Assembly: GCF_011630105.1 (NCBI RefSeq)
Contig: NW_022686322.1
Location: 3,767,837 to 3,798,982 of the forward strand
Source: Anneissia japonica
Lineage: Eukaryota
Reading direction: 5' to 3'
Length of the DNA stretch: 31,146 nt
Shown: in pieces, positions 2,669 through 31,146 of the stretch
How the letters are laid out: each line of letters begins with the position of its first letter
Numbering within the stretch: position 1 is the first letter of the stretch
Program-made: the position numbers and the translations under genes
Notes under the pieces: model-generated
The model's input: only the letters and a program-made list of their open reading frames with translations
Told to the model about the DNA's origin: nothing
Databases searched by the model: none

Positions 2669-3360
2669 ATGTTTTTAGCCATTATAAATTCTCATTCCTT
2701 CTTATGCAGTTTACACAATCAAACTAATATGAATGCAAAGGTGGTCAGTATATAAGAGAGCAATATATTTTATTTGTGCCATCAAACAATTATATAGTAA
2801 ATATAATATATAAGCTATAACAATATTAATAACAACAATGACAATATTAATAACTTACGAGTAGTCATGCTCTTCTATCCATTTTTTTCCATTTTATTTA
2901 TCAAATATGATATTCAAAAAATATTAATGATAATATTAATAGTTACAATTATAATATTTTCAGATTCAATTAGCATCAATCTGTCTGCATATATAGCATA
3001 TATTCAACATAGCTTTATCAATGCTCTTAAATTCATTTTTTTAAATTTTCAAATATATTTTAAACATATTAATTGTAATAAATCAGTCGTGGGTTTGATT
3101 CCTATCTGAAACAACCGTGATTTTTTATCAAGTATTTGAATTGTACTGAGCATTTAGTACTATATAACACGTCATGTGGGCAAACATCATTTCGTGAAAT
3201 TTTATTGGAGGAAATAATAAAATTCTAGTGTAGTACTTTAATAAACATCCAATAATGGTTTCAAGCATTAGCCACATATCGTGTATGCAAAAATTCATAA
3301 CCAAGGTTTTGGAAAATCAAATTTGCTTGTTTACAAACTTTTTTACAACGATTTTTAATA

Positions 3361-3427
3361 ATAAAAATTATGATAATAATAGTAATAATAATAATAATAA
3401 TAATAAACAATAATAATAACAATAATG

Positions 3428-3488
<61 letters not shown>

Positions 3489-3510
3489 TAATAATTGTTA
3501 TTATTATAAA
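3361..3510. repeat. (TAA)n microsatellite, about 150 bp
   Basis: Read directly from the sequence. Confidence 0.9.
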
Positions 3511-7444: not shown

Positions 7445-7600
7445 ATAGTAGCTTCATTTAAGTCCTTATCCGAGAAGACTGGGTTCTGCCAACTGAACCC
7501 TGGGCTAGGACTGGCTCGAACCAGTGATGATGTTAAGGCTGTAGTTAGCAGCATTCTTGCGTTACTGCTCAACCACTCAACTTGGTCACTCAACACAAAC
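7445..7600 (+). repeat. SINE-like dispersed repeat copy (5'-truncated) in MVP intron 1
   Basis: ATTTAAGTCCTTATCCGAGAAGACTGGGTTCTGCCAAC…GTTAAGGCTGTAGTTAGCAGC…CAACTTGGTCACTCAAC matches the reverse complement of 23935-24060. Confidence 0.5.
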
Positions 7601-9542: not shown

Positions 9543-10021
9543 GTGGGTTACACATCAATCAAAAACGTCCTTTTGGAAAGCAGCAATGTGGCTTTAGGCT
9601 GTCAATTGTTAAACCTCTTGTTTGTGCCCTTGAGTATGTCACTTTACCTGCATTACTTGTCTCCACACAGGAGGTAAATTTGTGCCTGGTATGATAGGAA
9701 AGTAATAATGCGTACATAATTAGAGCATTACTGGAACGATTCCTTACAAAGAGGAGACTTTTTTTCACATCCTGTGTGGTTATGTCAGATCAGGTCACGT
9801 CACGTCACTCTTATAGTTACAGACCATGGGGACGCTTCGATGATAACGAAATGACAATGGTGTTTGCTTATTAAATTTAAATCAATTTGTTTCGTAAGAG
9901 TACAATTTTTTAAAAAGAAAGTGAAAATACAATATCAATAAAGCCCATAGAGCACAGACATTTGAATTAATATACATACTTGAACAATTACTATGTTTTA
10001 GAAAGTTAACTATCATATACA

Positions 10022-10440
10022 ACATTTTTGATAGTAATTATTACAAATATTAATGAATAATAATATTTATTTATTAAAATTTATTACAGTAACTATTAGA
10101 GATATTAATGAATATTAACATTTATTTATATTTATATTAGTAATAATTAGAGATAATATTCAATATTAATACTTATTTATATTTATAATAGTAATTATTA
10201 GAGATAATGAATATTAATATTTATTTATTTTTACTTATAATAGTAATATTTATTTATATTTATAAAGTAATTAGAGATATTAATTAATATTTATATTTTT
10301 AATAGTAATTATTAGAGATATTGAAGAATATTAATATTTATATATTTATATTTATAATTTATTAGAGATATAAATGAATATTAATATTTATTTATTTGTA
10401 TTTATAATACTAATTATTAGAGATTAATGAATATTAATAT
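10022..10440. repeat. AT-rich minisatellite (about 55-60 bp unit, about 7 copies: …ATTAGAGATATTAATGAATATTAATATTTATTTATATTTATAATAGTAATT…) in MVP intron 4
   Basis: Repeated TTAGAGATA…GAATATTAATATTTATTTAT blocks read directly from the sequence. Confidence 0.7.
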
Positions 10441-13970: not shown

Positions 13971-14756
13971 GTAAATAAAAGAAATACGCGCCCGATAGGT
14001 GCACGAGTATACTGCAGAAACTAGGTCAAAATTACTCTATCGGATAAGGTGCTAATCATCAGCAGTTGGTCATCTGTCAAAACATGGGACTAATTACCAA
14101 CTTCTGTATAAAACGACATTCACACTGTACTTGGCATGCCTGTAAAATGAAATGAACCTTAACACGTTCCAGTTTACAGTAAAATTCCATCAACCATAAC
14201 ACATTCCATTTTACAAAAAAATTCCACTACCACATCATAGAGTATATCTGTGCAAGCGTAGTATACTCAACAACTAATAATTGTAAGGTCACCATCAACA
14301 AGTTTCTTGAGTTTTTAATGTGATTAATTTTTATCCAGTAAGTTGTAAAATTATAGAATAATTGTTGAAATCTGAAATGTGTTACAGTTCAGGAATATAG
14401 ATTTTGTAATATGAATTTCAATCATTATTATACCATCTTGTTTCAAGTCACCATGACTATGTCAGAGGTCAAGGTATATGTCTAATTATTTTCTACATTT
14501 TATGGCTGTTGGTCTGTACAGTGTTTAATATACCCAATGCATTTTTCTTATAAATTTAAAATTGTGCAGAAAATTGCATGGAAAATAGGTGTGCAAAGCA
14601 ACATGTAATAATTGTTTGTGTGTATCAGCCCTTATTTTAAAAATTTATGTCAAAGCCTAATTATTTTTCAGCAGGGTCACACTTTATGCTTATATTGTGT
14701 CCTGATCTTCAGCATCAATGTGGAAACCCTATATTTATTATAATTGCTTTCTTCAG

Positions 14757-14968
14757 AATTCTGCCAAAATCATCCGTGCATCAGTATTTGGGTTTGACGA
14801 CAAGCAGAAGGTCCGTGATCGATTCCTGTTCCCTCAGAACAACCTGGTTATAACCAGTATTGATATCCAGTCAGTGGAACCAGTTGACCAGCGTACCAGA
14901 GACGCTTTGCAGAAGTCTGTACAACTGGCGATTGAGATCACAACCAACTCCCAGGAAGCCGCAGCCAG
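14757..14968 (+). CDS. MVP: MVP coding exon 11 ([70 protein letters not shown] + split Arg)
   Basis: Acceptor CTTCAG|AAT at 14755-14756; matches human NSARIIRTAVFGF…[48 protein letters not shown]; donor CCAG|GTCAGA at 14969; phase 2. This is the exon that is duplicated at 19390-19601. Confidence 0.88.
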
Positions 14969-15471
14969 GTCAGAGTTCAGACATGATTGTTCACTTATAT
15001 TCCATTCATATTCCAGTTTTGCTTGGTATTTCATACAGACAACATGTACACTTGCTATGCAGGGTAGAACGATGCTCTATTAACTCAGCCTCTTTATGAG
15101 GCTCAAGCTGTGGAGTTGTTTTGAGGTATGAGAAATAATTTGGGAGTCTGACAATGTTTGAAAACCAGATGCTAAGATTGGAAGGCAACCACCTGTAGCA
15201 CTGTTTACTGTTGTGGAGTGATCAACAGACTTCCTCTTGTTCAGCTAGATAATTTAACAACCATTATTCATACATGGCCTTATTCTAATCAATATATAAG
15301 CTGAAGATGTCTTTACCCTCCCAACAATCAGTTTAGAATGTATTTGCCATTTTACATAATATGTGTGTGTGAAAGTGCATGCATAATGCATTGTATATTG
15401 GCTGTCTGTCAGAGTACTACTACATTATTGAATTTTTAATTGATCTATTTGATATTGTTCGGTACATTTAG

Positions 15472-15715
15472 ACACGAAGCTGAAAGACTTGAGCAGGAGG
15501 CAAAGGGTCGTCTAGAGCGTCAAAAGATTTTGGACGAAGCTGAAGCTGAGAAAGCACGCAAGGAACTGCTGGAGCTACAGGCCAATAGTGCAGCTGTTGA
15601 GAGCACTGGACAGGCAAAGGCTGAGGCTCAGTCCCGTGCTGAGGCTGCTAGAATTGAAGGCGAGGCAGCTGTTGAGCAGGCCAAGCTGAAGGCAGAGGCT
15701 GCTAAAATTGAATCT
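15472..15715 (+). CDS. MVP: MVP coding exon 12 ([82 protein letters not shown])
   Basis: Acceptor CATTTAG|A at 15470-15471 completes Arg; matches human [80 protein letters not shown]; donor TCT|GTAAGT at 15716. Confidence 0.85.
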
Positions 15716-16000
15716 GTAAGTTAACAAAATTCTTCTAACTGGCATTTTGTCCAAGTAAGTAAAGCAGCTTAGAGCCTGCTGCACACGAGTAAACAGACTT
15801 GCAACTGAAGTTATTGTCTTGTGTGTGGTGAAATTAGGAACCTTTTGAACCTGCATGACTGGAAATAATTTCAGTAACGCTCAAAAATTGTGTTCCTTGT
15901 CAATGGCGTATTTCAAGGAGGTGCCTGGGCACCCCTACCTTTTTGTTCAAATGTGAAAAAAATAATAGAAAATGAATGGCAGTAAATGGCAAACTAAGTT

Positions 16001-16265
16001 AAAGGCCTGTTTATACTAGCAACGATAATTATAAAATGCTAAAAAGCAATTGTTCCTATAGAAAATAAAAGAAATGAAAGAGGTTTTCACAATAGCACGC
16101 TTTGATAACGATTTATCATGTGTACGATAAAAAAATATTTTCGTATACACGATAAATTGTTATCGAATCGTGCTAGTGTGAAAACTTCTTTTATTTTCTC
16201 TATGAACAATTGCTTTATAGCATTTTATCGTTATCGTTACCGTTGTAAGTATAAACAGGCCTTTA
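16001..16265. repeat. Near-perfect 265-bp palindrome (two arms of about 130 bp, no spacer) in MVP intron 12; hairpin/foldback element
   Basis: Left arm AAAGGCCTGTTTATACTAGCAACGATAATTATAAAATGCTAAAAAGCAATTGTTCC…; the right arm is its reverse complement with a few mismatches, ending …TAAACAGGCCTTTA at 16265. Confidence 0.75.
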
Positions 16266-16442
16266 CTTTATACATTAACAGGCATTAATTTGTCATTAAT
16301 ATGAACAATTCTTGTTTTTTTATTTATATATTGCTTCTACTAATCTCATAGAATTGCATTGGCTGACAACTGTTGGGTGGAATGAGTGGCTGGCTTTCGA
16401 TATGACATTATTGTGCCATAATATGAGGAAATCACAGATAAC

Positions 16443-16848
16443 ATATGTGGCAAAGACAAGCCAAATCAGTCACTCGTCGCAAAAATCGATTTTGAGTTAT
16501 TAATACAGTGTTAGAGAGTAAAATAATATATATAAAATGGTAAAAAAATCATAGTTACATGCGTTTAACCACACAGCTGTTTAAAGAACAATATATGAGA
16601 AATTAGCCATCAAAGGTTATGATTTCAGGCATTTCTCATGCAGAAACTATCTTTAAATCCTTAAAAAGTATTGTTTTAACATTGAAAATTGGGAAAATAA
16701 CAGCATGAATGATGTGTAGATATATAAAGGTTAGTTTAGTGCAATAAAATAGATTTTTAAAAATTTGACATTCCAGCATGTTTTTTGCCATTTTCTCTCA
16801 AACACGATTTGCGACGAGTGACTGGTTTGGCTTGTCTTTGCCACATAT
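16443..16848. repeat. Inverted-repeat pair (about 45 bp arms, about 325 bp spacer) in MVP intron 12; MITE-like
   Basis: 16443-16483 ATATGTGGCAAAGACAAGCCAAATCAGTCACTCGTCGCAAA equals the reverse complement of 16808-16848 (TTTGCGACGAGTGACTGGTTTGGCTTGTCTTTGCCACATAT) with 1 mismatch. Confidence 0.6.
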
Positions 16849-16925
16849 TAATTTTAGTGTGGACACAGGTTTACGTGTTACACAGTCATCAAATAACATA
16901 ACTTCATTTACATTGTATCTTACAG

Positions 16926-17237
16926 CAATCAGAACTCGAACAACTGACAGTTGCGAGAGAGGCAGAGAATAAGTACATCAGCCAGCAGAACGAGATGGAA
17001 ATCAGCAAAACTAAAGAAATGAGCGACATCGAGACGGCTAAATTCGATAGCATGGTGTCGTCCATCGGTGCAGATACCATCAGGGCCATTGCAACATCTG
17101 GACCAGAGATGCAGGTGAAGTTGCTGCAATCTCTTGGCCTCAAGTCTACCTTGATTACAGATGGTACCAGCCCCATCAACCTCTTCAATACTGCCAACGG
17201 ACTTGTTGGTGCTCTTGCGCCACCATCAAACAATTAG
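16926..17237 (+). CDS. MVP: MVP terminal coding exon 13 ([17 protein letters not shown]…[52 protein letters not shown])
   Basis: Acceptor CTTACAG|CAA at 16924-16925; matches human …[48 protein letters not shown]; stop TAG at 17235-17237. The CDS total is 2556 nt (851 aa + stop). Confidence 0.88.
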
Positions 17238-17268
17238 GTTCAAAGCTTTTTTAACAGCAATTGATGGC

Positions 17269-17274
17269 AATAAA
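17269..17274 (+). other. MVP: Candidate MVP polyadenylation signal AATAAA, 32 nt past the stop
   Basis: Hexamer AATAAA read directly; further AATAAA copies lie at about 17366 and 17767, so the 3'UTR end is ambiguous. Confidence 0.45.
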
Positions 17275-18718
17275 ATATATTTCTAGATGTATTGGAAAGG
17301 AACATTTGAATTATGTTTTACCAATGGGTGTTTTATAAATTCATTAGATTTTTATTGGAAAGGAAATAAAACACTTATTAAAAAATCGGCTAACTGTGCT
17401 AAATTGCTGTATTAAAAGATAAATTTATTAGTTTTGTTAGTTTGGTGTTTGTAAAAATGAACTTTATATTTGTAGATAAAATTATCAAGGATGATATCAA
17501 AAACAGTTGTAGATTGGTTAATTTTGTTTATGATGATTGCTTTTTAGGTCTCCATATTTGTAGGATGTTTTTGGTCAATATGAAAATGGATTATATAACA
17601 TTTATATATAAAAGGAAGATAAATTTGTTTTATCAAATGATTGAGAAAATTTTGATTTTGTAATACTGTAATTAAATTCCTATTTTAATACAGTCATGAA
17701 CATTTAAATGTGAAATTGTGCCATATATTATAACAGAAATAATGTTTATTAAAATTGCTGTTAAAGAATAAATACAATATATTTTATATATCTATATAAT
17801 ATAAAATGCAGGCAGATGAATTATGCATTGACAGGCCTGTGTATTGATATTACAGAAGTTTGAATTAATGAGTTTTTAGTAATAAAGTATCAATTTAGAA
17901 AAAAAAATGGAAATATGTTTTCCACATGATCCAAAGTAAGTGTTCTATACAGATATTTATTATCATTGTTCTAATAATACTATATGAATTCTGTACATAT
18001 ATTGTTTGTATTATTTTGCATTACAAATTTCTTGAGTTTAGACCAATTGTGAGGGCCCAAATTTAAAAAATATACTCAAGAGAAGTATTAATACTTGTGT
18101 TTTGTTGTATGTGTTTTGTAGTCTAAACCCTCTCATTCGTAGTAAGTGCTTCAGGATAGTTTAATTGATGAGTATAACCTCTTTCAAACACAGTTAGGTC
18201 CCTCTGGTCCTATTACAACAAGGCATGACCACACCCATGAGATTGAGACAGGTGCGGATCCAGTAGGGGAACCCCTCCCACTTTTCCACTAAATTTCAAG
18301 GCATATCAATGTTATGTATTGAAAATACACACTACTCGTTTATCTATTCTGAGAATGTTGTGGCCCCCATCCCCCGTTTAAAAACATTTTGGATCTGCCC
18401 CTGTGAGAGGTATATATATCATGGTCTTAGCAATGAAATCGTATATCCTTTTTTCAACAAAAAAACATTACACATTTTAAAAAGTCAATCATTCAAAATA
18501 CTGTATTATATCATGTCTGAAGTGCAAGTCTTAAATTTTAAAAAGAAATATTTACAAGTCTTGCTATTACATATTTACATTAATTAAAATGTCCATAGTA
18601 GAAAACACACCTGTGTCTGCTGCGATATAAACATGTTTTGTAAAAATAAACTTTCTGATAAAATTTACAAAATGCATGAGGAGAAGCAGCAAGTTTTACT
18701 TTTCACATCAAAGTCAGT

Positions 18719-18955
18719 TTAGCTATCTGTAATAGCAACATCCTTTGTCAGCGAGATTCCAATTTCTTTAAAGTCTTCTGCAACACTCCTGATCATAGCA
18801 GCTGCTTGATGTTTAGAAACTGCAGGTACTGATTCTGTTCCTGGAATCCCCTTTCGTTTGGCATCCAACTCCAATAAAGCCTCCATTTTCATTGCAATTT
18901 GTTTGCACTGTTCTTGTCTTTGTTTCATTCTAGCCAGCTTTGCATCTTTCTGTGC
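18719..18955 (-). CDS. 3'-terminal coding exon of an unidentified gene (AQKDAKLARMKQRQEQCKQIAMKMEALLELDAKRKGIPGTESVPAVSKHQAAAMIRSVAEDFKEIGISLTKDVAITDS*)
   Basis: A - strand ORF preceded by a good acceptor (pyrimidine tract + TTTTAG|GCA at 18957-18956) and ending in TAA at 18721-18719. The coiled-coil-like sequence is not recognised as any family. Upstream exons would lie beyond the chimeric junction at 19116. Confidence 0.4.
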   Translation of the reverse strand, partial: AQKDAKLARMKQRQEQCKQIAMKMEALLELDAKRKGIPGTESVPAVSKHQAAAMIRSVAEDFKEIGISLTKDVAITDS

Positions 18956-19115
18956 CTAAAATAAAAAGGAATGCAAGATAGGAAATTACAGTACACGTTT
19001 GCATAAACGATCTACAGTATTTGAAGAAGTTTTTATCTAAAATTTATTTAGTAATACAGTAATAACATTTTGCTAGGCCTATATCTGTGTGTGTGTGTAT
19101 ATATATATATATATC

Positions 19116-19153
19116 CTGTCTCTTATACACATCTAGATGTGTATAAGAGACAG
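19116..19153. other. Nextera/Tn5 mosaic-end junction adapter (ME-rev + ME-fwd), a library artifact embedded in the assembly
   Basis: Exact 19-mer CTGTCTCTTATACACATCT (19116-19134) is followed immediately by its reverse complement AGATGTGTATAAGAGACAG (19135-19153). This is the circularisation junction of Nextera mate-pair libraries, and it is not a natural metazoan sequence. Confidence 0.92.
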
Positions 19154-19775
19154 GTGTTTAATATACCCAATGCATTTTTCTTATAAATTTAAAATTGTGC
19201 AGAAAATTGCATGGAAAATAGGTGTGCAAAGCAACATGTAATAATTGTTTGTGTGTATCAGCCCTTATTTTAAAAATTTATGTCAAAGCCTAATTATTTT
19301 TCAGCAGGGTCACACTTTATGCTTATATTGTGTCCTGATCTTCAGCATCAATGTGGAAACCCTATATTTATTATAATTGCTTTCTTCAGAATTCTGCCAA
19401 AATCATCCGTGCATCAGTATTTGGGTTTGACGACAAGCAGAAGGTCCGTGATCGATTCCTGTTCCCTCAGAACAACCTGGTTATAACCAGTATTGATATC
19501 CAGTCAGTGGAACCAGTTGACCAGCGTACGAGAGACGCCTTGCAGAAGTCTGTACAACTGGCGATTGAGATCACAACCAACTCCCAGGAAGCCGCAGCCA
19601 GGTCAGAGTTCAGACATGATTGTTCACTTATATTCCATTCATATTCCAGTTTTGCTTGGTATTTCATACAGACAACATGTACACTTGCTATGCAGGGTGG
19701 AACGATGCTCTATTAACTCAGCCTCTTTATGAGGCTCAAGCTGTGGAGTTGTTTTGAGGTATGAGAAATAATTTG
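19154..19775 (+). repeat. 622-bp duplicate of MVP intron10-exon11-intron11 (copy of 14521-15142); chimeric assembly segment or haplotig fragment
   Basis: Collinear identity at a constant offset of +4633 bp. The identical ORF-track entries (14647-14853 = 19280-19486; 14718-15083 vs 19351-19716) confirm this. There are 3 substitutions (14897 C>G, 14906 T>C, 15066 A>G). The left edge is the Tn5 junction adapter, and the right edge switches abruptly to RMND1 sequence. Confidence 0.88.
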
Positions 19776-19817
19776 TTGCAATTAAAAAAAAATTATTTTC
19801 AGGTATTGGCACATGGG

Positions 19818-20327
19818 ATGCAATTTAAGATGTCGTCTTCATTGAATAATCTGTCAATAGTCTTACCAAGATGGATGACAAAAGTCTGGCAGAAAACATC
19901 AATTGGGATAACGGCCATTAGTCAATCAATGCATTGTTACAGATTGAACAATCATCACAAACAAAACCTACTACAAAGTAGTATTAAAATGTATTCATCA
20001 AGTTATTCAAGGAGGTTCTCATATGAAAGGCATCAAATCATCCCCCATAAAATACCCTGGAAAATACCAGTACTAAATTTTGCAAATATAAAGTTATCAT
20101 TAATCAAGAATCAGTATTCACTCAGCTGTGTGCGAAAGCAAAACTTTTCTTCCAAGTCAACGTCGGGCAATACAACAAATGCCAACACAGATCCACTCAA
20201 CAGACCGATAGTTTATGCCATGAAACTTAAAAAAGGCACAAGTAATAAAGCAAATCGGAAAGGACAGAAAATGAAGATAGCAAAACATAGAACAAAGAAA
20301 CCAGCCAGATTAGCAAAAGACACAGAG
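19818..20327 (+). CDS. RMND1: RMND1 (DUF155) homolog, first coding exon, start uncertain (MQFKMSSSLNNLSIVLPRWMTKVWQKTS…RLAKDTE); basic N-terminus free of acidic residues, consistent with a mitochondrial presequence
   Basis: The ORF is open from 19761, but 19761-19775 lies inside the chimeric block. The first ATG beyond it is at 19818 (next at 19830). Donor GAG|GTGAGT at 20328; phase 0. The 5' boundary of this gene is compromised by the misjoin. Confidence 0.55.
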
Positions 20328-20453
20328 GTGAGTTTATAATGTGGCGACCCCCACTCCCCTGGCGACCCCCACTCCCCTCTCTCCACAAAAACATTGAAAA
20401 CAATTATAAATATAATTTTTTTTTTTAATGTATTTTTGGGACATTTTCTTCAG

Positions 20454-20562: not shown

Positions 20563-21200
20563 GTAAATAGATGTTCATATTCATTTGTTTTGTTTGTTTT
20601 ATCAGTTTTTGTGTTTAGGAGCATTAAAAATTTACAGATTAAAAATATACTGACACCTTAGTCTGACATGAATTTGAAAAAAAATTAGCATTTTTAATGT
20701 ATATTTGTTTCCCTATTATCTGAAAATTAGAACACTAAAAAAAAAAAAACATTTCTGGTAAAAAATGTATAGATATTTGATTTTGTGAAACATTTAAACC
20801 ATATTTTATTTAATTTTTTTAATTATTTGATAATGGTTTTAAGAAACATATTTGACATAAAATTTTCAAATACTGCAAAATTTGATTAAATTTAATAAAA
20901 CAAAAAAACTAATATTATTAGAAAGTTTATTTATATGCATTTACAGTAAAATGGAAGCAGAGAATGTTTTTGAAATTTATTTTTCTATAATTGTCAGAGC
21001 AGTATAATAATTTATTCATAATTCAATAATTTATATAAATTCCAATATAATGGTGCAGCACTATAAATAATTGAAAAGAAAGTCTTGATTGATTAGTTGA
21101 TTGGTTGGTTAAGGAATATTTTATTCTACAGATAAATTAAATTGTGTTTTATGTGTTTTTTTAATTTTTCTTTTTAAACTCAACTTTTTTGTTTAAATAG

Positions 21201-23929: not shown

Positions 23930-24290
23930 CATTTGTTAGAGTCGAGTGACTGAGTTGTAAGGCAGGGGCGCTGCTAACTACAGCCTTAACATTGCTCCTT
24001 GCCCAGTAATTGGTTGGTAGAACCAAATCTTCTCGAATAAGGACTTAAATATGGACTTAAATATGGGAGGTCAAGTGTATACATCTGGCTTGTGTGCACT
24101 TTAAAGAACCCATTGCATCTTTTTGAAGAGTTTGGTCCTATGGTTCATTTCAGTCCCTGTTGTTCAGTCCTTGTGGAATGATGTGAACTAAACACCGTTC
24201 TGTGGCTGCTACAGTAGTCATGGACCATCCCCATACACAATTCAGCACATGACGCTGCGAGTTATGGGTTTTTTCCTACATTTACCTTTA
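23930..24290 (-). repeat. SINE-like dispersed repeat copy (longer, inverse orientation) in RMND1 intron 6
   Basis: The reverse complement of 23941-24060 aligns with 7455-7600 (ATTTAAGTCC…GTTAAGGCTGTAGTTAGCAGC…ACTCAGTCACTCGAC). The extent towards 24290 is inferred. Confidence 0.45.
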
Positions 24291-26968: not shown

Positions 26969-27325
26969 CTAGAATTTTTTAATGAAGATGCTCTTGCGAA
27001 TTCCCATACAGTTAGCTTCATCAATGTTCAATGTATTTGACTTGACATCAATGTCTTCCTCCAAGCGAAGTTGGTTGCGAATTAGGCCTTTAAGCTCCAT
27101 CTCTGCTTGTGCTAAGGTTTCTTGAAGCCGTTTAACATTTGTATCAATCTCGGCAACTTCATTGATAAGACGGTATTGGACGGGATCACGACAGAGTTCA
27201 ACATTTGGACGCGTAGTTCGGGCATCAAGTCTGGTTTCGGATAACTTCATTGGTCCAGTTTTGTCCCCAATTGCTTTCTGTAGTTTCTCGATATTTCCTT
27301 CCATGTCGCGTATTTGTCCAAGAAT
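26969..27325 (-). CDS. TEKT1: Tektin-1-like terminal coding exon 5 ([118 protein letters not shown])
   Basis: Acceptor CTCTTCAG|ATT; contains the tektin signature nonapeptide RPNVELCRD; matches human …[82 protein letters not shown]; stop TAG at 26971-26969. The total CDS is about 1209 nt (402 aa). Confidence 0.85.
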   Translation of the reverse strand: [118 protein letters not shown]

Positions 27326-27956
27326 CTGAAGAGGTCAAAGACATAAATTTACATAAAAAACACCAACACAATCATCTTTCTAATCTAATTTGTTGTCTCT
27401 CATTAACCAAAAAATTACTTTTTTTGTCAAATTCTTGTCTCTAATAATTATTTGTTGAGCAAAATGATCTTGAATTTCTTTTCATATTTTACAATTTTGA
27501 TAAATGGAAATAAAATGTACAAAATACATAATTAAATAGTACCATTTCTAAATTCTTTGCACAGAACCATAAATTGGCTGTTAATATGATCCTGCAGTAA
27601 GGTATAAATTAGCAAAGATCTGAATTGTTTTCTCAATCGATAATTTATGAAATCTGTTTAACTAAGCAATTTAATGTAGTTGGGTTGGATTTTTTTTTAA
27701 TTTAAAATGTGTTGCTACAGTCAAGGAGACGCTAACGTTAAGGAGTGTACAGTGTAATATAAGCCAGCTAGAACCATTCTGATAATGTTTGGAAATTCAA
27801 TAATGATAAGTTAACTGGCATTCCAAACAACAAGTCAGGTCTTATTATACTATACAATACTTAATTCTTTGTATTTGATTACAAAGTGGCAGTAAAGATC
27901 ACATGACCGATTGGGCCTACTGAAGTTGTAAATTATAAATGCCGAATGACACATAC

Positions 27957-28179
27957 CCTGGCCAGGTGTGATTCTAACTTGCTCTTAGCCAATGCTGTCT
28001 CCTCAATCCTCTTAGTGAATGCGAGGTTTGTATCATTAACTTGTTGCTGCATATCATCGGCTGTCGTCGCCAGGATACTGTCAATTACGCTACGCAGATC
28101 TACTGCACATTTTCTTTGTTTTTCAGCCTTGTTGATATTCTCGTTTGAGAAATCCTGCCAATTTTCGGGAGTTACAGAG
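27957..28179 (-). CDS. TEKT1: Tektin-1-like coding exon 4 (N SVTPENWQDFSNENINKAEKQRKCAVDLRSVIDSILATTADDMQQQVNDTNLAFTKRIEETALAKSKLESHLAR)
   Basis: Acceptor TTTTACAG|C; matches human [75 protein letters not shown]; donor CCAGG|GTATGT. Confidence 0.8.
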
Positions 28180-28750
28180 CTGTAAAACAAAAGAAGATAT
28201 TGTGATTGATAGAAGTGATAGAAGTGATTGGGGGTTTATACATATCATGTACATACAAAATAATAGAATAAATAATAAAATTCATTTGATACCTCCATGA
28301 TTCATAATGAGAATTGCCATCGCACAAACCAGCATACTTTTGCTAAATACTACAACGAGTAATTAGCATAAGAAAGTGGCAGTATTGTATACTTAGTATC
28401 TGTAGAGATAAAGCCATTATGCTTTTACCCATAACAATGGCAATAGTAAATAAATTTCAGTAAATGACCTATCATTTTAAAGCTAATAATGTGAAGAATA
28501 ATATTAAACAGTCCATTTTCTTGTTTTGGTCACTAATGCTGGTTTGGCCACGGCAAGCTCCTTATATATCTCTGTTTTCTTTCAGTTGAGTAGTCGTCTT
28601 TTATGGGGACCTTCAACACATTAAAAAGTAAGGGATTGTCTCCTAGGCTACTGCCCAATTACTACCAAAAGGAACCATCTGAAAATGAATCTTTAGGCTT
28701 TCATGGGCTATCCTTGTTGCTCACACTAATTAAACCCAATTCAAACTTAC

Positions 28751-29023
28751 TTGGCCACAATCTTTGCTGATCCAGGGACTGATCGGAGACCGGAATGATC
28801 ATCCCGGAGTTCACGACAGTCGCCATCAATGCTCAGCGCCTGGAATTTGTCCTTCAGATCTTTCTCAAGGTAGTATTTCTTTGATCGCATAATCCTAATC
28901 TGCTCCGTTGTTTGCTCCAGTGTACGCTGCAACAGCGACATCACACCTTGAATAACTTCACGCTCTTTAATAAGGTTCTTCTGGACATCGTCATGCACTA
29001 AATCGATTGACACACGGCCTTCT
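28751..29023 (-). CDS. TEKT1: Tektin-1-like coding exon 3 (R [90 protein letters not shown] + split Asn)
   Basis: Acceptor CTAACAG|A; matches human [67 protein letters not shown]…; donor CCAA|GTAAGT. Confidence 0.8.
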
Positions 29024-29452
29024 CTGTTAGAATAAAAATAGATGAAAAATCAATATAATAGTGATTTATTCTCACCACAACATGAGTTACATTGTTGAAA
29101 ATCACTTGAGTTAATAATGGTACATTTTCATAGATTACAGTACAGTATAAGCTTTTATTTGGAATTTTAATGAAGAGATATGAACTTTTCATTTTTAGAT
29201 ACTGTATATGGAATCCTGGTTTGGGGGAACCACAGCCTCTGTTTAAATAACAGTAAATAAATAATTGGAATAAAAGCTCTAAATTTGAATGAAGAACACT
29301 TTTATAGTTAAAAAACCAAAAATATAATTACTGAAATATTCAAAATAATTGGGACCACAATTTGATAAAAAAAAAATTTCACTGTGACTGATCTCTACGA
29401 TGATACCAATGATACAAATAATTTTGTTGTGGAAACCTCGCAAATGCTTTAC

Positions 29453-29618
29453 CTATTTGCCAGACACTGATTTACAATTGCAAGTGGTTGTTTGCATGCC
29501 TCAAAAGCGCTTTCTAATCTGGTCTTGTAAGCTAGTAGCATATCAATCTCCTTCTTACTATCATCTAGTTTACGGTCCAATTCGTCTTTCCAAAATGTCA
29601 CATCATCTATTCTTTGAT
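29453..29618 (-). CDS. TEKT1: Tektin-1-like coding exon 2 (DQRIDDVTFWKDELDRKLDDSKKEIDMLLAYKTRLESAFEACKQPLAIVNQCLAN + split Arg)
   Basis: Acceptor (T)nCAG|AT on the - strand, preceded by a poly-T tract; matches human [22 protein letters not shown]…[28 protein letters not shown]; donor AATAG|GTAAAG. Confidence 0.8.
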
Positions 29619-29998
29619 CTGAAAAAAAAAAAAAAAAAAGGATTCAAAATGGAGAATGAAACTACTTCAAAAACTTAAAATAAATGGTCTCTAAGGATTA
29701 AAAAACAAAAGGGGGTGGGTAGTGGAACAAACTCTTCCAACAAAACCCCAGTAAGTATGTGCTAGTGGTTACATAAGTTATCAAAGGCAATACTGTATCA
29801 AAGTTTTATGCTAACAAAAAACAATTGAAATGATTTATCACAATTAGCGAAATAATTATGCTGCAATTAATTTTTTTAATTCTTCGGGCAAATTAGTCCT
29901 ACTTTCTAAACAATAGATACAGTTGCCCTGTTTCACTAGGCACTACTGGACTCACTTCACCAATGCAGACTATAAAAAACATTCAGATGTTTGCTTAC

Positions 29999-30188
29999 CA
30001 AATTTCTTATTTACATCCCTTTGTGTCTTTTTCGTTGTCTTGTCTGTCTCTTCAATCAATCTATCACTCTCTGCAATCAATCTCTCTGCACTTGCCCGTT
30101 GCTTTTCAGCACTATCATACTCAAGGCAATTATTTAGCGTCCACTCAGGATGTGTGAATGTAGTTGGTGCTTGAATAAGCTTTGCCAT
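29999..30188 (-). CDS. TEKT1: Tektin-1-like, coding exon 1 (MAKLIQAPTTFTHPEWTLNNCLEYDSAEKQRASAERLIAESDRLIEETDKTTKKTQRDVNKKF)
   Basis: Start ATG at 30188-30186 (- strand); matches the human TEKT1 N-terminus [24 protein letters not shown]…[30 protein letters not shown]; donor TTTG|GTAAGC (- strand) just below 29999; phase 1. Confidence 0.82.
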
Positions 30189-31146
30189 ATTGATTTGTGA
30201 TATCTGGAAAAGATTTATAGTTTTAATAAATTGATTATACAATACACATAGCCTTATCTAGCTCATTATCACAATGATTCCATAATCTATTTAATGATTG
30301 AAATACATACTACTGTGGCAAATTTAATTATGTCCAATAAGAATGGTAAAATTATAATTAAATACCTATTCACAAAAAACGCAAACCTCACTGTAAACTG
30401 TTTACAACAATTCATTCAACCAATTCAGAGATTTCCCATGTGCGTTGATTTGCTGTTGATTTGATCGTGTAAGTTGTTCAATACTTGCTTTTTAACGAGT
30501 AGAAACTCCTTTGTTTTTACAAAAATTTGTTTGGTGAAGTTAATGTACTTCACAAGACTACAATATAAACATTTTCACGTTTAGTGAAGATTTGATTTTC
30601 GTACATGGTACAGTACATTCATGAATTTAACTTGTCAACAAAAGAGCCTCGCCAAATCAGTGCCGTGGTGAGCTTGGGCACCGCAGCTTGGGGTGGGCCG
30701 AGGCTAATTTCGAGCTGAAAGTTGAACTCATAATAGTCATATTAACAAACATTTAACCAGAATCGTTAAATTTATGTGACCGATAATGCAAGTTTTTTTA
30801 AGTATGACTGCGCATGCGTTATTTATTTCACGTAAATATTTCTTTTTACTGATTAGTTTATGATGGAGTGCATTTCAATACTTGAAGTATGTATTATACT
30901 TTCTGATTAGTTTACTGTGACATAAATAATTAAAAATATAGGCCTAGGCTAGGTATCCACTTCCTATCTAGGCCTAGGCTAGCCTAGGCCTATATAAAAT
31001 AATAAAAACACAAATAAATAATGTTTTCTTAATCTTTATTCTTACTTAGGCCTAGTAGACAGTGGCGGCTCTAGGATAAAATTTATGGGGGTTAAGATGT
31101 CTGACTGGGGTGGGGGGCTAAGTATTTATGGGTGTAAGTGCGCAGC

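Follow-up and report, generated by a model that had tools for sequence, protein, structure and literature searches.

A stretch of 660 nt (positions 19116–19775) of the window, by which we mean the whole 31,146 nt of Anneissia japonica DNA analysed here, is best explained as an assembly artefact derived from an untrimmed mate-pair junction read and not as a biological feature, a reading to which we assign a probability of roughly 0.96. The stretch comprises a 38-nt adapter junction followed by a displaced 622-nt copy of part of the MVP gene, and it lies between a truncated stathmin-like gene and the start of RMND1. The block is presumably absent from real genomic DNA; the corresponding interval of a relative lacks it and holds a real exon in its place. 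The features on which the argument draws are the following.

14521–15142, plus strand: real MVP source segment, colinear with the MVP homologue P0001, in which the exon occurs once.
14757–14968, plus strand: real MVP exon that encodes the last part of the shoulder domain and the beginning of the cap helix, recognized from Pfam MVP_shoulder and the alignment to P0001.
18719–18955, minus strand: exon 2 of the stathmin-like gene, its last exon, with the stop codon; splice acceptor tttattttag/GCACAG; supported by phmmer, tblastn and profiles.
18956–19115, minus strand: real 160-nt remnant of intron 1 of the stathmin-like gene, cut by the artefact; supported by the acceptor at 18955 and the 254-nt intron of the relative.
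19086–19115, no strand assigned: (TG)n(TA)n microsatellite with a final C, the last real sequence before the adapter.
19116–19134, plus strand: Tn5 mosaic end CTGTCTCTTATACACATCT, exact match in the non-transferred-strand orientation (strand according to PMC2229646 and PMC4248319).
19135–19153, plus strand: Tn5 mosaic end AGATGTGTATAAGAGACAG, transferred strand, whose 3′ G adjoins the copied sequence at 19154.
19154–19775, plus strand: spurious 622-nt copy of 14521–15142, with 3 mismatches, that takes in the end of one MVP intron, the 212-nt exon and the beginning of the intron after it.
19390–19601, plus strand: false "second MVP exon", with the same translation as 14757–14966; past the MVP stop and absent from the syntenic interval of the relative.
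19776–19829, plus strand: real sequence resumes, 54 nt before the RMND1 ATG, after the second breakpoint at 19775/19776.
19830–20333 (3′ end approximate), plus strand: first coding exon of RMND1, from the list of open reading frames, tblastn to RMND1 exon 1 of the relative, and DUF155 downstream.

The 38 nt at 19116–19153 match CTGTCTCTTATACACATCTAGATGTGTATAAGAGACAG exactly, that is, CTGTCTCTTATACACATCT followed directly by AGATGTGTATAAGAGACAG, and this sequence occurs once in the whole window (0 mismatches) and in none of 100 dinucleotide-preserving shuffles; each 19-mer half is also unique in the window when up to 3 mismatches are permitted. The 38-mer consists of two engineered Tn5 mosaic ends placed back to back, with 0 nt separating their inner ends. 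A hyperactive sequence, the 19-bp mosaic end took the place of the wild-type OE and IE ends in vitro, and the Illumina oligonucleotide is listed as CTGTCTCTTATACACATCT (PMC4248319), the transferred strand being defined as ending in AGATGTGTATAAGAGACAG-3′ (PMC2229646). By these published definitions and inspection of the sequence, both mosaic ends present the 3′ end of their transferred strand directly to genomic DNA, that of 19116–19134 lying on the minus strand and adjoining genomic base 19115. This arrangement is a requirement of tagmentation. The identical 38-mer has been described as a biotin-labelled "ring adapter" with which fragments of ~4 kb are circularised for mate-pair sequencing (PMC7357533), and in the Illumina Nextera mate-pair procedure tagmentation with biotinylated junction adapters is followed by circularisation, shearing and streptavidin capture, after which the junction adapters need to be trimmed with NxTrim (PMC6298255). 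The 38-mer represents a technical circularisation junction and not natural DNA. A scan of the window for the standard Nextera primer tails TCGTCGGCAGCGTC and GTCTCGTGGGCTCGG found neither, and the window contains 0 Ns, no TruSeq sequence and no further adapter sequences. A home-made, non-Nextera protocol that used the same adapter would have an indistinguishable outcome, an artefact of this very type.

Two inverted 19-bp Tn5-type ends that face outward, as they do in a transposon, might instead suggest insertion in vivo of a Tn5-derived element, whether natural Tn5/IS50 or a laboratory transposon of the EZ-Tn5 type. We regard such an insertion as virtually impossible: the ends are the engineered mosaic end and not wild-type OE or IE; the 0 nt between them leaves neither transposase nor cargo; the flanking 9-mers, ATATATATC and GTGTTTAAT, do not form the 9-bp target-site duplication; and the flanks, instead of being contiguous target DNA, come from two places separated by 4.6 kb. 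Moreover, the back-to-back form occurs in 0 of 5,426 complete genomes of E. coli, the natural home of Tn5.

Bacterial draft assemblies also carry the junction. A scan in which every bacterial and archaeal species was represented by a single genome located the identical 38-mer in unrelated bacterial drafts, in at least 120 stretches (loci L001–L120), with RefSeq NZ_ records among the carriers. Hosts among the matches listed belong to the Proteobacteria, Firmicutes, Actinobacteria, Cyanobacteria and Tenericutes, and include Pseudomonas, Enterococcus, Collinsella, Streptomyces, Scytonema and a Tenericutes bacterium. Base-for-base identity between unrelated bacteria and an animal argues that the 38-mer is no natural element. 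The earlier note had taken the 38-mer for a technical circularisation junction, and the ring adapter described in PMC7357533, the engineered form of its ends, its presence in bacterial drafts and its absence from the complete E. coli genomes all bear this out. Several copies per 8 kb occur in some assemblies, for example those of Ca. Enterococcus wittei 10A9_DIV0425, Pseudomonas sp. HS-2, Collinsella ihumii GD8 and Ideonella MAG2. A literature search for Nextera mate-pair libraries behind the assemblies of Collinsella ihumii, Bittarella massiliensis and Olsenella massiliensis found nothing.

False local duplications accompany about one third of the matches listed, and their direction is informative. 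A junction read starts in the right end of a fragment, crosses the adapter and continues into the left end of that fragment, so the sequence to the right of the adapter is expected to re-read upstream DNA on the same strand. Among the matches listed, 93 bacterial loci with a single adapter were usable for a test with 40-mer flanks: the right 40-mer recurred upstream in 23, downstream in 2 and as the reverse complement in 1, and for the left 40-mer the recurrence was downstream in 19 loci and upstream in 1 (sign tests by our own arithmetic, ~1e-5 for the right flank and ~2e-5 for the left). The jump back of 4,633 in the window has this same geometry, and the prediction that circularisation makes for the direction of the jump thus holds both here and, at 23 versus 2 and 19 versus 1, among the bacterial matches listed. 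Kilobase-scale jumps with truncated copies and an abrupt switch occur in bacteria as well (L086, jump of –2,133 and copy of 122 nt; L060, –726 and 445 nt), so the second breakpoint of the window is not unusual for artefacts of this kind.

In the window, 14521–15142 and 19154–19775 form a direct repeat of 622 nt on the same strand with a spacing of 4,633. The copy follows the adapter without any intervening base and breaks off sharply at 15142/19775, beyond which the original runs on as GGAGTCTG... and the copy as TTGCAATT.... The two versions differ at 3 of 622 positions (14897 C/19530 G, 14906 T/19539 C and 15066 A/19699 G; 99.5% identity), and both exonic differences are synonymous, such that the 70-codon peptides of the two copies are identical. 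The earlier description of this segment as a re-reading of 14521–15142 from 4,633 bp upstream is therefore correct in position and length, but not in the exact identity that it implied. Most likely the three mismatches represent the other allele. The left contig probably ends at position 19115, and the circularised fragment would have extended from 14521 to this same position. The implied fragment of 4,595 bp (14521–19115) lies within the insert range of such libraries, usually 2–12 kb (PMC6298255), and the order of fragment end, adapter and fragment start on one strand agrees with the mate-pair fragment of ~4.6 kb that had been proposed. The further proposal that a single junction-spanning read produced the whole structure succeeds for the geometry but not for the length, since 622 nt exceeds one Illumina read and the program must have gone on to use additional reads of MVP origin. 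The abrupt switch noted at 19775/19776 is evident: the copy stops there, and the RMND1 ATG follows 54 nt downstream.

Three differences in 622 nt, the exonic ones synonymous, are also what a slightly diverged duplicate would show, and the block could in principle be a real, recent segmental duplication of MVP intron, exon and intron that carries an adapter-like 38-mer at its edge by accident. This is scarcely credible. An exact match to a synthetic 38-nt sequence has essentially zero probability by chance, the copy begins at the very first base past it, the syntenic interval of the relative (L121) is without MVP sequence, the copy displaces a necessary exon 1 of the stathmin-like gene, and allelic variation accounts just as well for three SNPs in 622 nt. 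There is also a very slight chance that the 622-nt block is a recent MVP duplicate located elsewhere in the genome, from which the mate-pair fragment began; the adapter would still be an artefact, and the additional exon would then represent a real second locus.

The identity of the repeated exon is clear: it matches Pfam MVP_shoulder at 1e-13 and has 1,037 homologues, the best of which are 91–92% identical. The MVP exons of the window are colinear with the homologue P0001, in which the repeated segment is single, and the terminal MVP exon with its stop codon ends at 17237, which places the second copy ~2 kb past the end of the gene. A paralogous MVP exon is difficult to reconcile with this position past the MVP stop and between two other genes, and with the interval of the relative; the view that the extra MVP-like exon at 19390–19601 is not a paralogue is thereby upheld.

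Several repeats were noted in and around the MVP gene. Two MITE-like inverted repeats lie between its last exons, one at 16443–16483/16808–16848 (41-nt arms, 98% complementary, 324 nt apart) and one at 16021–16073/16186–16238 (53-nt arms, 91% complementary, 112 nt apart). A repeat of ~125 nt at 7456–7582, in an MVP intron, recurs in inverted orientation at 23940–24050 in an RMND1 intron (81–82% complementary), and is probably an interspersed element of SINE or MITE type. The window further contains a very AT-rich minisatellite at 10014–10433 (GC 13%, units of ~51 nt), as well as long (TAA)n/(ATT)n tracts at 2584–2685 and 3356–3510 that form imperfect inverted repeats.

On the left side of the artefact, the minus-strand segment 18719–18955 starts at a good splice acceptor and ends in a stop codon, which makes it a terminal exon and leads one to expect an upstream exon to its right. 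A word-indexed homology search with this exon returned no homologue. An exhaustive phmmer search identified 19 relatives, the best of which, P0121 (136 aa), is 71% identical (E 2e-26), with an alignment confined to residues 60–136 of P0121. The family consists of small proteins of 136–153 aa, and we use "stathmin-like" as a loose label, since the N-terminal halves of the homologues score 25–31 bits against the Pfam Stathmin cutoff of 24.7 and are thus barely above it. When eight stathmin-like homologues were searched against the window with tblastn, matches occurred only at 18955–18722 (E 2e-32 to 2e-14), and no match of their N-terminal 58–72 residues to the window was accepted. Profiles gave the same division: the C-terminal half found exon 2 in a six-frame search of the window at E 6e-35, and the best hit of the N-terminal half in all six frames had an E of 2.1. 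One tblastn match to the stathmin-like N-terminus at 20937–20890 on the minus strand (E 3.9) is bounded by stops within a 22%-GC RMND1 intron and was judged to be due to chance. Since neither tblastn nor profiles yielded an N-terminal match, exon 1 is absent from the window, which retains the C-terminal half of the protein and lacks the N-terminal half. The missing exon 1 is predicted to comprise ~58 codons and to resemble MSTTHSNKVQNVSFDVLLDD...EKRRQ. The minus-strand gene had earlier been said to end at 18955; this is mistaken, in that 18955 is the acceptor of the last exon and the gene is cut off.

The chromosome of a relative offers a template for the intact locus. The gene for P0121 lies on a 39-Mb chromosome record (GCA_964355755.1, OZ206122.1), where the order is tektin (+), RMND1 (–), stathmin-like (+) and a Roc-COR-Death gene; when flipped, this reproduces the order and orientation in the window, with stathmin-like (–), RMND1 (+) and tektin (–). 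A head-to-head pair of stathmin-like gene and RMND1, with tektin beyond RMND1, is therefore common to both, and the exons of the window are 59–94% identical in amino acids to the relative's locus. The other side of the stathmin-like gene is occupied by the Roc-COR-Death gene in the relative and by MVP in the window. In the relative (L121, 10001–10665), exon 1 of the stathmin-like gene spans 10001–10174 and is followed by an intron of 254 nt and by exon 2 from 10429, the intron having the same phase-0 position as the acceptor in the window. A search of the relative's 20.6-kb locus found no mosaic end and no MVP-like sequence. Exact-sequence look-up of the two ORFs that flank the junction returned no record.

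The comparison also bears on the extent of the loss. The stathmin-like and RMND1 ATGs of the relative lie on opposite strands, 1,003 nt apart. The exon 2 acceptor and the RMND1 ATG are separated by 1,431 nt in the relative and by 874 nt in the window, 660 nt of the latter being artefact and only 214 nt real. A rough estimate is that ~1.2 kb may be missing, which would comprise the remainder of intron 1, the whole of exon 1 and the divergent promoter region between the stathmin-like gene and RMND1. The lengths behind this figure are those of another species, and when the flanks of the junction were aligned with its DNA, similarity was confined to coding exons and the non-coding DNA did not align. 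The suspicion that true sequence before RMND1 is missing is thus well founded, as stathmin-like exon 1 is present in the relative and absent from the window.

Two abrupt, non-homologous breakpoints and a gene cut at the junction could also arise from a scaffolding misjoin, in which the contig with MVP and the stathmin-like gene and the contig with RMND1 and tektin would not be true neighbours. We consider this very unlikely, given that on the relative's chromosome the stathmin-like gene and RMND1 stand head-to-head, with tektin next, in the order and orientation of the window. The shared gene order and orientation indicate that the scaffold join in the window is very likely correct and that only the fill is wrong.

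To the right of the artefact, the plus-strand exons belong to RMND1 (DUF155, 3e-24), and the tektin gene follows on the minus strand at 26969–30242 (4e-108). The longest mechanical ORF over RMND1 exon 1, at 19761–20339 on the plus strand, has its ATG and first 5 codons within the spurious copy; its start is thus chimeric, and an ab initio gene model could select this false start codon. The true RMND1 ATG is likely that at 19830.

Taken together, the preferred reading of an untrimmed junction read would involve the following steps. High-molecular-weight DNA would have been cut and tagged with Tn5 mosaic-end adapters at ~14520/14521 and ~19115/19116, and the 4,595-bp fragment circularised, such that its right end (...19115) was joined via the 38-nt junction of two mosaic ends to its left end (14521...). 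Shearing and biotin capture would then have led to junction reads that were sequenced with the adapter untrimmed. The left contig may have stalled in the (TG)n(TA)n microsatellite within intron 1 of the stathmin-like gene, where an assembler or gap closer could have extended it through a chimeric read into MVP for 622 nt, using reads from the other allele (the three SNPs). This fill would have been joined to the next contig, which starts at 19776, 54 nt upstream of the RMND1 ATG. As a result, the 660-nt fill would replace the ~1.2 kb that includes the remainder of stathmin-like intron 1, exon 1 (~58 codons) and the divergent promoter.

The effects of the artefact are a false MVP-like exon, the deletion of stathmin-like exon 1 and the promoter, and a chimeric ORF upstream in the RMND1 region, and consequently gene models built automatically, counts of paralogues, analyses of promoters and breakpoints of synteny would be wrong at this locus. 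One such site probably implies many more in the assembly, and screening of the whole assembly for the 38-mer is warranted. The contaminant is widespread in public bacterial drafts, RefSeq included, where it brings false duplications and deletes real sequence. The value of the observation lies solely in curation and data quality.

Among known systems, the closest counterparts are the junction chimeras of Nextera mate-pair libraries that NxTrim targets, which have the same 38-nt junction of a mosaic end and its reverse complement, and the same order on one strand, the implied insert of 4.6 kb lying within the usual 2–12 kb of such libraries; in contrast to such reads, the chimera described here sits in a consensus assembly and has been extended to 622 nt, beyond the length of a read. 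The adapter-contaminated drafts of Ca. Enterococcus wittei 10A9_DIV0425, Pseudomonas sp. HS-2 and Collinsella ihumii GD8 share the 38-mer and the upstream duplications on the same strand. Most bacterial cases among the matches listed have jumps of 80–700 nt and a copy that covers the whole small circle, whereas the window combines a kilobase-scale jump with a truncated copy, the loss of real sequence and an animal host. A real Tn5/IS50 insertion resembles the window in its 19-bp Tn5-type inverted terminal sequences, but differs in that the window has engineered ends, no internal DNA, no 9-bp duplication and flanks that are not contiguous.
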